A stretch of DNA of 64,000 bases from Candidatus Omnitrophota bacterium (lineage in GTDB: Bacteria > Omnitrophota > Gorgyraeia > Aquiviventales > Aquiviventaceae), in NCBI GenBank assembly GCA_016198905.1, contig JACQHR010000013.1, forward strand, positions 70,153-134,152, in the 5' to 3' direction. Below are positions 35,636 to 57,989 of the stretch, piece by piece. The notes beneath the pieces were generated by a model. The model searched no databases. It had not been told where the DNA came from and saw only the letters and a program-made list of their open reading frames with translations. Numbering within the stretch: the first letter of the stretch is position 1; each line of letters begins with the position of its first letter. The position numbers and the translations under genes were made by a program.

Positions 35636-35968
35636 TCATGACTCCTCAACGCTCTTCAGCAGTTCCTGGTCCACCTGCAGCTTGCGCTTTAACAGCTCAG
35701 TCAGCTGTTGAAGCAACTGGACGGTTTCCTCGTTCTGCAGCCGGTAGATCACCGAGGCCCCGTCCTGGCGTGTCGTCACCAGGCCTCCCTGCTTCAGGAT
35801 GCCCAGATGCCGCGACACCGTAGGCTGGTCCACGGACAACATCTGCGCAAATTGCCCGACCGACTGCTCCTTTTGCCCAAGCAATTCCAAGATGCGCAGC
35901 CGCAAGGGGTGAGCGAGGACCTTTAGGAAGGCAGCTTTGATGAGGTGAACCTGGTTGCCCTCGGGCAT
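35636..35968 (-). CDS. ArsR/SmtB family transcriptional regulator
   Basis: 110 aa. AHPLRLRILELL...SVGQFAQMLSVDQPTVSRHLGILKQGGLV. Confidence 0.8.
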   Translation of the reverse strand: MPEGNQVHLIKAAFLKVLAHPLRLRILELLGQKEQSVGQFAQMLSVDQPTVSRHLGILKQGGLVTTRQDGASVIYRLQNEETVQLLQQLTELLKRKLQVDQELLKSVEES

Positions 35969-35986: not shown

Positions 35987-36008
35987 TATATTCGCATATT
36001 AGCATATA
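35987..36008. promoter_or_regulatory. candidate ArsR operator (22-bp imperfect palindrome)
   Basis: tatattcgcatattagcatata sits just upstream of the AGGAGG RBS of the 35636..35968 gene. Confidence 0.35.
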
Positions 36009-36063
36009 ACGATGAAGCGGTTCTGTCAAGAGCCGGACGGAAAGGTACAGAACGAGGGAAGAG

Positions 36064-36408
36064 TTATTCCTTGCCGAGGGTGGCAAGGACGCGTTCAGAT
36101 TCCTTGAACTTCTTGTGCAGCATCATCGCAACGGGCCGGAGGATTCTGAAGATGTCGTGGTCGCGAATCGCGTAGTAGACGGTGGTGCGCTCCTGGCGGG
36201 AGGTGAGGATCCCGGCCTCCCGGAGGGCCAGGAGATGTCGAGAGAGGGTAGACTGCTCGACGCCGAGCGCCTTGACGAGAACCCCAACGCTTTTCTCCCC
36301 GTGCTTGAGGACCTCGACGACCTTGAGGCGAACCGGATAGCTCAAGGCCCGCAGGAAATCCGCCTTGACCTTGTAAACCATGTCCTCCATCAGAGCCCTG
36401 TCCTTCAT
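36064..36408 (-). CDS. ArsR/SmtB family transcriptional regulator
   Basis: 114 aa. SYPVRLKVVEVL...SVGVLVKALGVEQSTLSRHLLALREAGIL. Confidence 0.8.
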   Translation of the reverse strand: MKDRALMEDMVYKVKADFLRALSYPVRLKVVEVLKHGEKSVGVLVKALGVEQSTLSRHLLALREAGILTSRQERTTVYYAIRDHDIFRILRPVAMMLHKKFKESERVLATLGKE

Positions 36409-36533
36409 CGTCCTCCTATCATAGCTGGTGGCTTGCGGGAGTCAATGGCAGGGACAGCAACCAGGGCAGCACGGCTCCTAACTGAGGGACGAACGCTCAC
36501 ATGGACACGCAAGGCGGCACCCGCAGGCGCGCG

Positions 36534-37892
36534 TCATTTAGAGCTCCTATCAAAATACCGCGCGAGCCGCGTTGCGTGCGCCCGGGCCTCTCGGCCAAGG
36601 CGCGACGACGACGGCGTAGTCGCAGCACTACGCCAAGGAGGAGCAACGCCGGCCGCGGGCCCGGCCGCCGCAACCCATGGGCCGACAGCGGGCTGGGCCG
36701 ATCTGTGGCGCTGCGCGGCGTTGCTCGTGCTTCGACTTCGCTCAGCACGAGTCCCGAGCGAAGTCGAGGGACTCGTCGCTCGCGTACTCGTCTGCGCGTA
36801 CGCCACGCTCCTCGCGCCTTGCGAGCCTCGCACCTCGGCCCAGCGCGGCCGCGGGGTATTTTGATAGGAGCTCTTATAGCGTCCGGCGGCAAAGCGTCGC
36901 AAATGTTTGACGTGGAGGGCGAAGTTAAGGCCGACGGTGACGCCTTGTGGAGCCATGCCGAAGGTGTTCATGCCGATCACTTCGTTGGCGGCATTGAGGA
37001 GCGGGCCTCCGCTATTGCCCGGATTGATGGACGCATCCGTCTGGATCCAGGTCATGTCCTCGAACTCTCGCTCGCTCATCGACTCCCCCGGTACTGCCAC
37101 GTAGGGAACGTGCATCTGGAAATTCGTCCGGATCGCGCTGACGATCCCTTGGGAAACCGTCACGGATAACCCGAAGGGGTTGCCGATCGCCTTCACCTCA
37201 TCGCCGACCTTCAGGCCTTTCTCTGAGGCCAGATGCAAATAATCCGGCGTGCTCGCGTGAATGGCAATCAGCGCCATATCGTAATAGGGACTCGTTTTCA
37301 GCACCGTCGCACTGTATTCCCTCGCCTCTTTGAAGCGCGAGACGCGTTCTTCGGCAAGGACCACAGTGATCGTCTTCATGCCGTTGACGACATGATAGTT
37401 GGTCAAGATGATGCCGTGCGGATTGATGATGATGCCGCTGGCCGCCCCTTGGCCGCCGTCGGCGGTGACCAGCTTGATGGTGGCGACGCCTTTGATGGCT
37501 TGAGCGAGCGTGACCTCCGGCGCTGCGGCGACAGACGATGCGGCCCGTGATTTGGCGGCGGTGTCGTCGGTTAGCGGCGCGCTCGATGGAGAAGGAGGAA
37601 GATTCGCAGGCTCTGGCGGTGCCGTGTCAGGCGGGGGTGTCGTCTCCGGCGTAGTCACGGGTGTCTCAGGCGGCTGCGGCGCATCCTCGATCACGCGCAC
37701 CTCTCCTGGAGCAAAACTCATCGTCCCAAACTCGAACTGCACCACCACCTCGCGAGCGTCCTGCGTGACGATCGTCCCGGGAAGAGTTGTGCCATCCTTG
37801 AGACGGATGCGGCTGGCACTCACCGGCATCGCCCACACGCAGAGCAGGCTCAGGGCAAGGAGCGCTCTTCTCATTATCCGCTCACCAGACAA
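36534..37892 (-). CDS. trypsin-like (S1C/HtrA-type) serine protease, no PDZ, with element-encoded C-terminal extension
   Basis: Signal peptide. TNYHVV, YDMALI and GNSGGPLL catalytic-triad contexts. The last 112 codons are translated from the MITE-like element. Confidence 0.75.
   Translation of the reverse strand: MSGERIMRRALLALSLLCVWAMPVSASRIRLKDGTTLPGTIVTQDAREVVVQFEFGTMSFAPGEVRVIEDAPQPPETPVTTPETTPPPDTAPPEPANLPPSPSSAPLTDDTAAKSRAASSVAAAPEVTLAQAIKGVATIKLVTADGGQGAASGIIINPHGIILTNYHVVNGMKTITVVLAEERVSRFKEAREYSATVLKTSPYYDMALIAIHASTPDYLHLASEKGLKVGDEVKAIGNPFGLSVTVSQGIVSAIRTNFQMHVPYVAVPGESMSEREFEDMTWIQTDASINPGNSGGPLLNAANEVIGMNTFGMAPQGVTVGLNFALHVKHLRRFAAGRYKSSYQNTPRPRWAEVRGSQGARSVAYAQTSTRATSPSTSLGTRAERSRSTSNAAQRHRSAQPAVGPWVAAAGPAAGVAPPWRSAATTPSSSRLGREARAHATRLARYFDRSSK
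36541..36873. mobile_element. 333-bp non-autonomous (MITE-like) element with 19-bp perfect terminal inverted repeats and a TTA duplication
   Basis: Left end GAGCTCCTATCAAAATACC; right end GGTATTTTGATAGGAGCTC. TTA at 36538..36540 and 36874..36876. Interior full of hairpins. No transposase. Confidence 0.6.
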
Positions 37893-53230: not shown

Positions 53231-53318
53231 AGCACACAGCACTAAGCACAAAGCACACAGAACGATTACCTTAACTCTGTGTACTGTCTGCTTTGTGCTT
53301 TGTGCTTTCTGCTGCTCT
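53231..53318. repeat. inverted heptad arrays (AGCANNN)x4 / (NNNTGCT)x5
   Basis: agcacac agcacta agcacaa agcacac ... gtgtact gtctgct ttgtgct ttgtgct ttctgct, between convergent gpmA and ogg. The right arm lies in the last ogg codons. Confidence 0.6.
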
Positions 53319-54143: not shown

Positions 54144-54214
54144 CCGTTTCGCGTTTCACGTTTCATGTTTCACGTCCAACTTGAAACCTGAAACGTGAAA
54201 CCTGAAACGAAACG
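54144..54214. repeat. inverted heptad arrays (CGTTTCA)x4 / (GTGAAAC-type)x4 abutting the ogg start codon
   Basis: ccgtttcg cgtttca cgtttca tgtttca cgtccaac ttgaaac ctgaaac gtgaaac ctgaaac gaaacg. Confidence 0.6.
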
Positions 54215-55058: not shown

Positions 55059-55183
55059 GTGAACCTCCCTGTGACACTCATCAGCCGCACACTCCGGGGC
55101 TTTTCCGGGCCCGGCGCTCAAAGGGCTCCCACACCCTTCGATCTGCCACTGATGAGTTGTACGAACTTCTACAAGTTTTCTCT

Positions 55184-55211
55184 TTGTGCTTGGTGCTGTG
55201 TGCTTAGTGCT
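55184..55211. repeat. heptad array (NNGTGCT)x4 directly 3-prime of the nrdJ stop
   Basis: ttgtgct tggtgct gtgtgct tagtgct. Same unit family as 53231..53318. Confidence 0.55.
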
Positions 55212-55214
55212 GAG

Positions 55215-57989
55215 TTACGAGCAGCCGGAGGTGGTGCCGCAGTTGGCGCACTTGTAGCAGCTGCCGCTACGGATCATGAGCGAGCCGCAGTCACTGCACA
55301 CCGGCGCATCGGCTTGCGAGACGAACGTATTCTTCTCTTGCTGCTCCATCGCATTGCCGTAGCTGTTCTCCGCCGGTATCTTGGCCGTGGCAGGAACCGC
55401 TGTCGCAACCGACTTGGCCCCAGGAATCTCAGTCACTTTGAACTGCTGGGCTTCTTCTGCCGGCAGGAATTTCAGCGCCATCCAGCGGAAGATGTAGTCG
55501 ATCACCGATTTGGCAAAGCGAATGTCCTTGTTGTTGGTGACCCCGGAAGGTTCAAACCGCACGTGGCTGAATTTGTTCACGAGAATCTTGAGCGGCACGC
55601 CGTATTGCAGCGAGAGCGAGACGGTCGTCGCGAAACAGTCCATGACGCCGGAGAGGGTCGAGCCTTCCTTCGACATCACGATGAAGATTTCGCCTGGCTG
55701 GCCGTCTTCGAAGAGCCCAACGGTCAGATACCCTTCATGGCCACCGATGGAAAACTTATGCGTGATCGCCTGGCGCTCATCCGGAAGCCGGCGGCGGTAG
55801 GGCGTGCCTACCGGGGCTTTTGCTTTCGCTTTATCACCCTTGCTCGTCGAAAGTGGCTGCACTTTCTTGGAGCCGTCACGGTAGATCGCCAGCGCCTTCA
55901 CACCGAGTCGCCACGCCTCGGTGTAGGCGTGCACGATGTCTTCGACCGTCGCCTCTTCCGGCAAATTCACCGTCTTGCTGATCGCCCCGCTGATGAACGG
56001 CTGGGCGGCTCCCATCATCCGCACGTGGCCCATGGAGTGGATCGAGCGCGTACCGTGCATCGGCCGAAACGCGCAGTCGAACACCGACAGATGCTCAGCC
56101 TTCAATCCCGGCGCCCCTTCGATGGTTTCCTTTTCATTCAAGTGCTTGAGAATCGCTTCGATCTCCTGCGGCTCGTAGCCGAGTTTCTTCAGCGCCTTCG
56201 GGACGGTCTGATTGACGATCTTCAGCATCCCCCCACCGACGAGGCGCTTGTACTTGATGAGCGCGATGTCCGGTTCGACCCCGGTCGTGTCGCAATCCAT
56301 CAGAAACGCGATCGTGCCGGTCGGTGCGAGCACCGTGACCTGCGAATTGCGCACGCCGAATTGCTCGCCAAGCTTGATGGACTCATCCCACGTTCGCGTT
56401 GCGGCTTGCAAGAGCGGCTGTGGCACGAGGCGATGGTTGATTTTATCGACCTGCGCGCGATGCTTGCGCAACACGCGGATCTGCGGCTCGCGATTGAGCG
56501 CAAAGCCCGCATATGGCCCAAGCTGCTGCGCAATCTGCCCGGAGACTTCATACGCATGCCCGCACATGAGTGCCGTAATCGCCCCGGCCCACGCGCGGCC
56601 CTCTTCCGAGTCGTAGGCGACACCCAGCGACATGAGCAGCGCGCCAAGATTCGCGTAGCCCAAGCCGAGCTCGCGGTAATCTCTCGCGTTGCGATCGATC
56701 TTCGGCGTCGGATAGGAAGAGTTGTCGACGATGATATCCTGCGCGATGATCATGATGCGCACCGCGTACTTGAACTGTTCGGTCAGGAAGTTGCCCTCAT
56801 CGTCGACGAACTTCATGAGGTTGATGCTGGCGAGGTTGCACGCGCTGTTATCGAGGTGCATGTACTCGCTGCACGGGTTGCTCGCGTTGATGCGGCCGGT
56901 GTTCGGGCAGGTGTGCCAATCGTTGATCGTCGTGTCAAACTGCATGCCGGGATCGCCGCAATGCCAGGTCGCTTCGGCGATCAATCGCAGCAGGTCGCGG
57001 GCTTTGGCGCGCTCAATCACCTCTCCGGTGGTCGCGGCCTTCAGATCCCACTCCTCATCGGTGAGCGCTCGCTTCATGAAATCGTCCGTCACGCGCACGG
57101 AGTTGTTCGCGTTCTGGAAGAACACCGAGGTGTACGCTTCCCCGTCGATCGTCGCGTCGTAGCCCAAGTCGATCAGCTTGTGCGCCTTCTCTTCTTCCTT
57201 CCACTTGCAGAGGATGAACTGCTTGATATCCGGGTGATCGGCGTTCATCACGACCATTTTCGCCGCGCGCCGCGTTTTGCCCCCGGACTTGATGACGCCC
57301 GCCGAGGCATCGGCCGCGCGCATGAAGGAGACCGGTCCTGATGCGGTGCCGCCCCCGGCGAGGCGCTCGCGCGAGGAGCGGATGTTCGACACGTTCAGGC
57401 CGGCCCCGGAACCGTACTTGAAGATCATCCCTTCGTTGCGGTACCACTCGAGGATGGACTCCATCGTGTCATCGACGGAAAGAATGAAACACGCGGAGCA
57501 CTGCGGGATTTTCTCGATCCCCACGTTAAACCACACCGGCGAATTGAACGCGGCGTATTGATTGACGAGGAGGTAGGTCAGCTCGGCATGATAGGTCTGG
57601 GCATCGTCATCGGTCGCAAAGTAGCCGTCTGCGATGCCCCAATTGGTAATCGTATCAGCCACCCGGCTAATGAGCTGCTTCACGCTGCGCTCGCGCGCCG
57701 GGGTCCCGAGGGCGCCGCGGAAATACTTGGAAACCACTACGTTGGTCGCCAGCTGGCTCCAGAAATTCGGCACCTCGACGTCTTTTTGTTCAAAGACCAC
57801 TTCCCCTTTCTCGTTGCCGATCGAGGCGCTGCGCAACTCCCAGGTCATTTCGTCATACGGATGCACGGTCGGACGGGTCCAGCGGCGGGCGATTTTGAGG
57901 CCCGTTGTCTGAGTTTTGGGACGCCCTTGGAGAGTGACCGCCGATGCCTCACCTGCAGGCCTTCCAACTGTCTTGACGCCCTCAGCCAT
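55215..57989 (-). CDS. nrdJ: adenosylcobalamin-dependent (class II) ribonucleotide reductase
   Basis: Start placed at MAEGVKTV behind GAGGAG. NPCSE active-site loop. C-terminal Cys-rich tail CSDCG...CYKCANCG. Confidence 0.9.
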   Translation of the reverse strand: MAEGVKTVGRPAGEASAVTLQGRPKTQTTGLKIARRWTRPTVHPYDEMTWELRSASIGNEKGEVVFEQKDVEVPNFWSQLATNVVVSKYFRGALGTPARERSVKQLISRVADTITNWGIADGYFATDDDAQTYHAELTYLLVNQYAAFNSPVWFNVGIEKIPQCSACFILSVDDTMESILEWYRNEGMIFKYGSGAGLNVSNIRSSRERLAGGGTASGPVSFMRAADASAGVIKSGGKTRRAAKMVVMNADHPDIKQFILCKWKEEEKAHKLIDLGYDATIDGEAYTSVFFQNANNSVRVTDDFMKRALTDEEWDLKAATTGEVIERAKARDLLRLIAEATWHCGDPGMQFDTTINDWHTCPNTGRINASNPCSEYMHLDNSACNLASINLMKFVDDEGNFLTEQFKYAVRIMIIAQDIIVDNSSYPTPKIDRNARDYRELGLGYANLGALLMSLGVAYDSEEGRAWAGAITALMCGHAYEVSGQIAQQLGPYAGFALNREPQIRVLRKHRAQVDKINHRLVPQPLLQAATRTWDESIKLGEQFGVRNSQVTVLAPTGTIAFLMDCDTTGVEPDIALIKYKRLVGGGMLKIVNQTVPKALKKLGYEPQEIEAILKHLNEKETIEGAPGLKAEHLSVFDCAFRPMHGTRSIHSMGHVRMMGAAQPFISGAISKTVNLPEEATVEDIVHAYTEAWRLGVKALAIYRDGSKKVQPLSTSKGDKAKAKAPVGTPYRRRLPDERQAITHKFSIGGHEGYLTVGLFEDGQPGEIFIVMSKEGSTLSGVMDCFATTVSLSLQYGVPLKILVNKFSHVRFEPSGVTNNKDIRFAKSVIDYIFRWMALKFLPAEEAQQFKVTEIPGAKSVATAVPATAKIPAENSYGNAMEQQEKNTFVSQADAPVCSDCGSLMIRSGSCYKCANCGTTSGCS

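Follow-up and report, generated by a model that had tools for sequence, protein, structure and literature searches.

The question raised by this locus is where the last 112 residues of a secreted trypsin-like protease came from, and what kind of DNA encodes them. The protease is specified by a minus-strand open reading frame of 452 amino acids (36534..37892) in the window, by which we mean the whole 64-kb stretch of DNA that was analysed, and the Trypsin_2/Trypsin domain found within residues 148–318, with Trypsin_2 at 151–308, bears out the identity given to it in a preliminary description of the sequence. That description also held that a GC-rich, hairpin-dense segment of 333 bp sits at the end of the gene, bounded by exact 19-bp terminal inverted repeats (TIRs) and flanked by TTA, and all of these features were found again (Table 1). 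The two TIRs are the sole matches to the 19-bp sequence in the window when up to three mismatches are allowed, none of 100 shuffles gave any, and the pairing between the ends continues inward imperfectly, over 25 nt at 96% and over 34 nt at 91%.

Table 1. Positions of the protease gene, the element and their parts in the window.
Feature	Position	Strand	Basis and remarks
Native S1C/trypsin-like secreted protease, residues 1–340, ending ...RRFAAGRYK	36873..37892	-	Domain search, homologue alignment
Probable MITE-derived C-terminal tail, 112 codons	36537..36872	-	Element plus duplication; no homologue has the tail
Original TGA stop, reused	36534..36536	-	Element plus duplication = 336 nt = 112 × 3
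Left target-site duplication (TTA)	36538..36540		Sequence; same TWA flank at other copies
Left TIR, type A, GAGCTCCTATCAAAATACC	36541..36559	+	Exact, unique in the window; imperfect pairing to ~36574
Whole element (probable MITE)	36541..36873		333 bp, 70.6% GC, non-coding; no Pfam, no Rfam
Left internal hairpin arm of conserved core	36571..36674		Consensus structure, columns 31–140/145; compensatory pairs
Right internal hairpin arm with small sub-hairpins	36692..36844		Consensus structure, columns 158–311/317; compensatory pairs
Extra 48-bp block at right-arm tip	36724..36771		Alignments; inverted repeats I5, I14, I18
Right TIR, exact reverse complement of left	36855..36873	-	Exact motif search
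Right target-site duplication (TTA)	36874..36876		Sequence
Promoter-like site for ArsR-family gene	36418..36445	-	Consensus match only; outside the element

The segment differs from its surroundings in several ways. Its GC content is 0.706, compared with 0.604 for the window, and it is dense with inverted repeats; the hairpins cited in the earlier account are real and were recovered as I15, I5, I14 and I18 in our inverted-repeat search. Both strands fold far beyond shuffled sequences (z = -9.4 and -9.5), and the element can be aligned with its own reverse complement from end to end, i.e., it is a global imperfect palindrome. It has no coding capacity of its own: the reading frames that cross it are without a Pfam match and no transposase is encoded. 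A search of Rfam 15 over positions 36000–37400, with E-values up to 10, gave no meaningful match, the best overlaps scoring 12.7–17.4 bits against gathering scores of 37.8–83, with E-values of 5–8. Neither blastn nor nhmmer found a second copy of the element in the 64-kb window.

Deleting the element together with one TTA in silico gives back the ending ...RRFAAGRYK-TGA, with CGCTATAAATGACGCG as the predicted element-free junction. The open reading frame also confirms that the inserted codons are free of stops as far as the native TGA. The insertion had been placed two codons before the stop, which is right as to the end of the gene and slightly off as to the exact point: this lies within the last sense codon, Lys340 (AA|A), and the duplicated TAA of the coding strand takes in the third base of the Tyr339 codon and bases 1 and 2 of the Lys340 codon. 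The nearest non-self homologues of the protease are 43–54% identical and 296–360 amino acids long. All of the 20 closest end at the predicted pre-insertion stop, 0–9 residues past an FAAGYYK motif that is the counterpart of ...RRFAAGRYK, and none carries the tail, so a conserved C-terminal domain, the outcome that this comparison of C-termini might have revealed, is not upheld. In the alignment of these 20 sequences H167 and S294 are invariant and D205 is nearly so, and the catalytic domain of the protease and its final helix are intact.

The tail itself looks quite different. It is rich in Ala, Ser, Arg, Thr and Pro, with a pI of about 12, and the GC contents at codon positions 1, 2 and 3 are 0.63, 0.77 and 0.69, compared with 0.61, 0.49 and 0.74 in the body of the gene. 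The value of 0.77 at the second position compares with 0.30–0.49 in the protease body and the neighbouring genes. Three of the six frames are free of stops across the element, in line with the earlier remark that other frames are open too, and since the codon-position GC of the tail lacks a coding signature, the open frame is indeed no evidence of selection. AlphaFold2 models the protease domain confidently and gives the tail a pLDDT of 40–50, save for a predicted helix at residues 431–449. Given the second-position GC content, the three open frames and the low model confidence, the tail is non-coding in origin and is not an evolved coding sequence. It is presumably translated and tolerated all the same, and the likely effect, judged from the sequence, is that an mRNA whose 3′ region is structured and very stable gives rise to a protease with a tail that is basic and probably disordered.

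At the DNA level, an empty site from a close relative was not found by looking up the neighbouring genes for a glycosyltransferase, a malic enzyme and ArsR. Four of the contigs (L018, L019, L021 and L022) are identical to the window and stop short of the element, and one from a relative with 90% identity (L020) ends at the start of the protease; the ArsR homologues, or the ArsR pair, of other Omnitrophota have different genes upstream. In the window an ArsR-family gene lies downstream of the protease (36064–36408, minus strand). Because the promoter-like site for this gene is outside the element, its expression need not depend on read-through. A similar sequence, seen by eye and unaligned, precedes the start codon of the ArsR homologue in two further loci (L026 and L028). 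A role for the element as a terminator or promoter was rejected, as no terminator-like site was found and, near the ArsR gene, the sole promoter-like sequence is the one beyond the borders of the element.

If the segment is mobile, the same ends should be found elsewhere, as the preliminary description had suggested looking for. The exact 19-mer was scanned across genome and metagenome collections and occurs at 14 loci, eight of which are true relatives. Two complete copies of 285 bp (L004 and L007) and two copies cut by contig ends (L002 and L006) belong to one MAG labelled Planctomycetales. The other four come from JGI metagenomes, two of them complete (L010, 292 bp, and L014, 285 bp) and two again cut by contig ends (L012 and L013). 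The remaining six matches (L001, L003, L005, L008, L009 and L011) are due to chance, lying in low-GC contigs with unrelated interiors; one of the chance matches falls in a ROK-kinase-like motif, GILIGAPNL, as translated by eye. The window element is 92.6% identical to L004 and L007, 91.2% to L014 and 78.9% to L010, and with all these loci the window has the element alone in common, the flanks being unrelated. No difference separates L004 from L007 (100% identity), which suggests a recent transposition in that MAG; together with the two contigs of the same MAG that break inside the element, this fits a recently active repeat. The MraZ protein of L013 shares a cluster, at ≥90% identity, with an MraZ from an Omnitrophota MAG, and at least some of the further copies are in Omnitrophota.

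Other searches extended the family in a different direction. With the tail as query, a word-indexed protein search had no hits and missed even the protein from which the query was taken. When 1.84 billion protein representatives were searched exhaustively, related segments turned up in just four other proteins. Their contigs carry three further elements (L030, L031 and L032), which brings the family to 12 copies on as many contigs, partial ones included, in unrelated contexts, 11 of them beyond the window. A plasmid collection searched in distant mode held no match to the element, and viral contigs held no copies: a 16-mer of the TIR and two core motifs gave chance matches only, and nhmmer was negative.

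The flanks of the copies tell us how the element inserts. In the orientation of the window, the complete copies with the window's TIR (type A) are flanked by TTA/TTA in the window, TTA/TTA in L004, TTA/TAA in L007, TAA/TAA in L010 and TAA/TAA in L014. Identical 3-bp TWA duplications are thus present in four of these five, and the duplication is degraded in L007, L030, L031 and L032. Of the 18 element ends examined, 15 have TTA or TAA, and when whole and partial type-A copies are taken together, seven of nine show the longer C-TWA-G context at one end or both. We also considered duplications of 2 bp (TA) or 4 bp (YTAR) and rejected both, since neither fits the flanks of the window, L004 and L010 together. 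The copies occur in either orientation relative to neighbouring genes, and those outside the window are mostly intergenic, often a few tens of base pairs past a stop codon, which is the pattern that a T-W-A target would give in GC-rich DNA. The window copy is inserted a few bases earlier than these gene-end copies, in TAT AAA TGA.

We therefore consider that the segment is very probably, at roughly 85%, a MITE, i.e., a non-autonomous DNA transposon moved in trans, of a family previously undescribed. The MITE-like behaviour without an internal transposase that had been proposed for it is supported both by the dispersed copies with the same TIR and by the lack of any Pfam match. On such a scheme, a DDE transposase acting in trans would recognise the 19-bp TIRs, move the element and integrate it at a T-W-A trinucleotide, which would then be duplicated. 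In this genome, of ~60% GC, A/T-rich triplets of this kind cluster at gene ends and between genes. In the window the element would have struck the TTA/TAA inside the ...TAT AAA TGA end of the S1C protease gene, and the gain of 336 nt, combined with a frame that happens to be free of stops, would let ribosomes read across the element as far as the original TGA. This would give an otherwise intact protease with a 112-residue basic, low-complexity tail.

Which enzyme does the moving can be narrowed down to some extent. The preliminary description pointed to IS5/Harbinger-like groups on the basis of the 3-bp TTA/TAA duplication; the duplication recurs as TWA and fits the literature on the IS1031 group (PMC12016507), while the assignment of the transposase itself is an inferred one. 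We put the chances that the mobilising enzyme is of the IS5 family, and IS1031-like, at about even, the lead coming from the 3-bp TNA/TWA duplication, the GAG/GAA termini and a weak resemblance of the TIRs. Elements of the IS1031 group of IS5, such as IS1031 and ISLrh, prefer a T-N-A target and make exclusively 3-bp repeats (PMC12016507; PMC2516522). Their inverted repeats of 17–24 bp start with GA(A/G)C, and all three types of TIR that we find in the family begin with GA(G/A)C. The type-C TIR GAACCGGTTTCATAAATCC agrees with the ISLrh inverted repeat GAACCTGTCTAGTATCT at ~11 of 17 positions, a weak similarity aligned by eye. The element differs from this group in being without a transposase gene, and no matching full-length IS was found: neither the window nor ~280 kb of retrieved loci holds an autonomous element with matching TIRs, and the exact type-A 19-mer scans of the collections gave MITE-sized pairs only, a search that partners with variant ends would escape. 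PIF/Harbinger elements, the eukaryotic relatives of IS5, also use TWA and are not expected in bacteria.

The three elements reached through the protein search show that the ends and the interior of this family have not changed together. L030 is 286 bp long with termini GAGCGCCTTTCCTCACCTC that are complementary at 19/19 positions (type B) and flanks CTA/TTA, and it supplies a GDPD-family gene with its last ~100 residues. L031 is 283 bp long with termini GAACCGGCTTCATAAATCC, complementary at 18/19 positions (type C), and flanks CTA/TAA. L032 is 292 bp long and is flanked by TAA/TTG; its right end is of type C, 18/19 identical to that of L031, and its left end is degraded, with four mismatches. 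Only 9–11 of the 19 positions are identical between the three TIR types, the changes being parallel on both arms, whereas the GC-rich core of ~245 bp is 79–92% identical across them, with a sharp boundary of divergence at position 19/20. Moreover, the core of the type-B copy is closer to that of the window (0.92) than is the core of the type-A copy L010 (0.88), whose TIR still matches at 19/19. On these alignments the divergence of TIR and core is not clock-like: around an interior that stayed conserved, the ends have changed as a unit, either by replacement or by co-evolution with different transposases. A core that is more conserved than the TIRs is the reverse of the usual MITE pattern, and hints that the element may be something beyond a passive deletion derivative.

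The conserved interior has a definite shape. In the consensus fold, a closing stem made up of the TIRs and ~10 subterminal pairs leads into two long hairpin arms. The right arm of the window element carries an extra block of 48 bp at its tip, which comprises three interlocked hairpins bounded by a CTCGT direct repeat, contributes 16 of the 112 tail codons and is missing from the copies of 283–292 bp. That this block is a nested foreign insert was rejected because L032 has a related block at the same site, in inverted orientation and matching at 17/18 positions; it is therefore a variable apical module of the arm. Across five copies 95.8% of the cells pair, and 10 pairs have changes on both sides where 2.8 are expected, a number that none of 500 shuffles reaches and that compares with 0–2 in slid controls. 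With seven copies, 29 of the 97 consensus pairs are compensatory, i.e., pairing is kept through two-sided changes, and 14 of these are in the TIR stem.

Such numbers raise the alternative that what matters functionally is the GC-rich core, acting as a structured RNA or as a DNA cruciform to the benefit of either the element or its host, with the terminal stem free to covary. The compensatory pairs, the strong folding of both strands and the contrast between core and TIR identities all speak for it, and a mobile structured-RNA module of this sort, as opposed to a mere dead transposon, would be compatible with mobility by a transposase. Nevertheless, we think it unlikely. No Rfam family matches, and the equal folding of both strands together with the self-palindromy describes a DNA palindrome in which no single transcribed strand is indicated, and copies lie in either orientation relative to their neighbours. 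Independent lineages are few, about 5–6, hairpin-templated repair also yields paired changes without selection, and concerted change of the TIRs is equally expected from co-evolution with transposase variants. The same absence of an Rfam match and of strand asymmetry, and the two orientations, make a host RNA gene the less favoured explanation of the fold, which is more likely to serve the element or to be a by-product of palindrome maintenance. Our inference is that the element rather than the host profits from the conserved two-arm fold, which may, for example, bring the ends together or stabilise transcripts. The stronger proposal, that the ~245-bp core is a selected structured module (an RNA or DNA fold) re-fitted at least three times with different 19-bp TIRs, strikes us as improbable on the present sequences; were it true, the cargo would be the fold itself, carried on interchangeable transposase-recognition ends, and not a decaying IS remnant.

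Other origins for the segment fare worse. A GC-rich, hairpin-dense and globally palindromic sequence that at times lies inside ORFs (the window and L030) could be a palindromic repeat of the REP/REPIN or Rickettsia RPE kind, in which case recombination or a tyrosine/HUH enzyme, and not cut-and-paste transposition by a DDE enzyme, would have spread it. This is very unlikely given the identical 3-bp TWA flanks beside sharply defined 19-bp TIRs in four of the five intact type-A copies; REPINs and RPEs are not known to make target-site duplications. The length of 283–333 bp is also 2–3 times that of REPINs or RPEs, and reading through the listed neighbouring ORFs, rather than a dedicated search, no RAYT-like gene was noticed. 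An error of assembly, with a repeat misjoined into the contig of the MAG, would be in keeping with the independent Logan assemblies of this population, which stop at 37017 and at 36146 without crossing the element, and repeats of the family do break contigs elsewhere. However, a chimeric join would not yield a precise 3-bp duplication, the exact frame and the native stop, and these make the artefact extremely improbable. Finally, the tail could belong natively to the protease gene, as its C-terminal part or as structured 3′ regulatory DNA: an open frame runs to a proper stop codon, and NCBI annotates a protein of 446 amino acids, starting at the next start codon and labelled trypsin-like peptidase, as a single CDS. 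We give this practically no weight, as the homologue ends and the occurrence of the same sequence beside unrelated genes in other genomes refute it, and the composition is that of non-coding DNA with TIRs and a duplication as its bounds.

Taking the element to be a MITE, we can compare it with known systems. Type II MITEs of prokaryotes are non-autonomous IS derivatives that have only the TIRs in common with an IS (PMC10969869). The present family resembles them in its size of 283–333 bp, its perfect 19-bp TIRs, short target duplication and lack of an ORF of its own, and also in its multiple dispersed copies, strong fold-back and mostly intergenic or gene-end sites (PMC10969869). It differs in that no cognate IS was found within the window and the retrieved loci, and in that the interior is more conserved than TIRs that differ block-wise. 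MITEs are known to form in-frame fusions and C-terminal extensions (PMC10969869; PMC5896051). In Coxiella burnetii, for example, QMITE1 and QMITE2 reach into functional genes at their 3′ ends and supply C-terminal residues to the products, and EnhC of the Dugway strain has a QMITE extension of 33 amino acids (PMC5896051). The QMITEs share with our element the basic peptides and the very stable RNA stem (PMC5896051), but they are an unrelated family with duplications of 7–9 bp, and the extension here is far longer (112 amino acids) and reuses the original stop. In-frame insertions are also documented for the RPEs of Rickettsia (reviewed in PMC10969869). Like the element studied here, these are palindromic repeats lying in frame within protein genes, to which they add a peptide, and the host protein remains functional. 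RPEs are about 100–150 bp long, are not known to have a clear signature of TIRs and target-site duplication, and insert in frame as a rule. In our family the in-frame insertion is incidental: the 292 + 3 nt of L010 is not divisible by three, and the majority of copies lie between genes.

What we describe is a new family of elements of a well-known kind, with a known kind of effect, and no major concept is changed by it, MITE-made C-terminal extensions having already been documented in Coxiella and Rickettsia. It does have consequences for annotation, as the 446-residue record of a trypsin-like peptidase is one quarter transposon sequence, and at least one other gene, for the GDPD-family phosphodiesterase at L030, has the same kind of tail. 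The family also provides evidence of transposon activity in uncultured groundwater bacteria of the Omnitrophota type, a lineage whose mobile elements are, to our knowledge, barely catalogued, and the two identical copies in one MAG argue that the activity is recent. The feature that most deserves to be followed up is the conserved, covarying core with its block-wise exchange of terminal repeats, a pattern of evolution that is unusual among bacterial MITEs. Should it hold in a larger sample, it would bear on how MITEs switch between transposase partners, and on selection acting on their folds.

The MITE that adds a 112-residue tail to the trypsin-like protease of the window has lengthened at least one further gene. 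In a groundwater metagenome contig (L030), the final ∼100 residues of a GDPD-family phosphodiesterase are encoded by a copy of subfamily B, and the stop codon of the gene overlaps the start of the next (ATGA); this is the second gene lengthened by the family. At a metagenome locus carrying a complete type-A copy (L010), a ParC/GyrA-like reading frame ends after ∼260 residues, exactly at the element boundary. Proteins of this type are usually >700 aa long, and taking the element out of L010 did not bring back a longer one. This leaves two explanations: a rearrangement at the element that truncated the gene, or chimerism of the short L010 contig.

When the 112-aa tail was used as a query, a word-indexed protein search returned no match, not even the protein the tail belongs to, yet an exhaustive HMMER scan recovered that same protein with E = 8.5e-59. 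Negative results from indexed searches are therefore unreliable for low-complexity queries.

Coordinates of the features discussed, by locus.
Locus	Feature	Coordinates	Strand
Window	Tandem ArsR-family regulator genes (n = 2)	35636-35968, 36064-36408	-
Window	MITE, type A	36541-36873	
Window	AGCACNN/GTGCTNN arrays	53231-53313, 55182-55215	
Window	Palindromic heptad array	54145-54209	
L030	GDPD-family gene	226-1170	
L030	MITE, type B	866-1151	
L010	MITE, type A	218-509	
L010	ParC/GyrA-like ORF	509-1291	-
L004	AGCACNN/GTGCTNN heptads	1077-1100	
L007	AGCACNN/GTGCTNN heptads	54-95, 448-520	
L002	Element at contig end	1-51	
L006	Element at contig end	1-50	

Over its full length, the window element aligns with its own reverse complement (for several copies, nhmmer gives E-values of 1e-11 to 1e-14), so its two halves are related in inverted orientation, and a ∼140-bp half that underwent inverted duplication may be its origin. 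Two contigs of the CAYJWN01 MAG terminate within the element, which indicates that the family breaks assemblies; its copy number in MAGs is for this reason probably underestimated.

Just downstream of the window protease lie the two ArsR genes. A tandem ArsR pair followed by CarD is conserved across many Omnitrophota contigs (L021-L029), with malic enzyme in addition in the window. Because the gene upstream of the pair differs among these contigs, the adjacency of protease and ArsR genes is lineage-specific.

The window also holds several heptad arrays. One, located between an OGG/AlkA-like gene and the gene for a dCTP deaminase, is palindromic: a 3-nt spacer separates four CGTTTCA-type heptads from four opposing ones of the form (G/C)TGAAAC. 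Two others, built of AGCACNN/GTGCTNN 7-bp tandem units, are intergenic, 3′ of gpmA and 3′ of a ribonucleotide reductase gene, and form mutually inverted repeats with 1.9 kb between them. In a MAG labelled Planctomycetales, these AGCACNN/GTGCTNN heptads also flank MITE copies (L004 and L007), and there the element sits within a CTTAG of the heptad array. Their presence both in the window and beside these copies suggests that the two hosts are related or have a repeat family in common, and that the heptads are preferred targets of the MITE.
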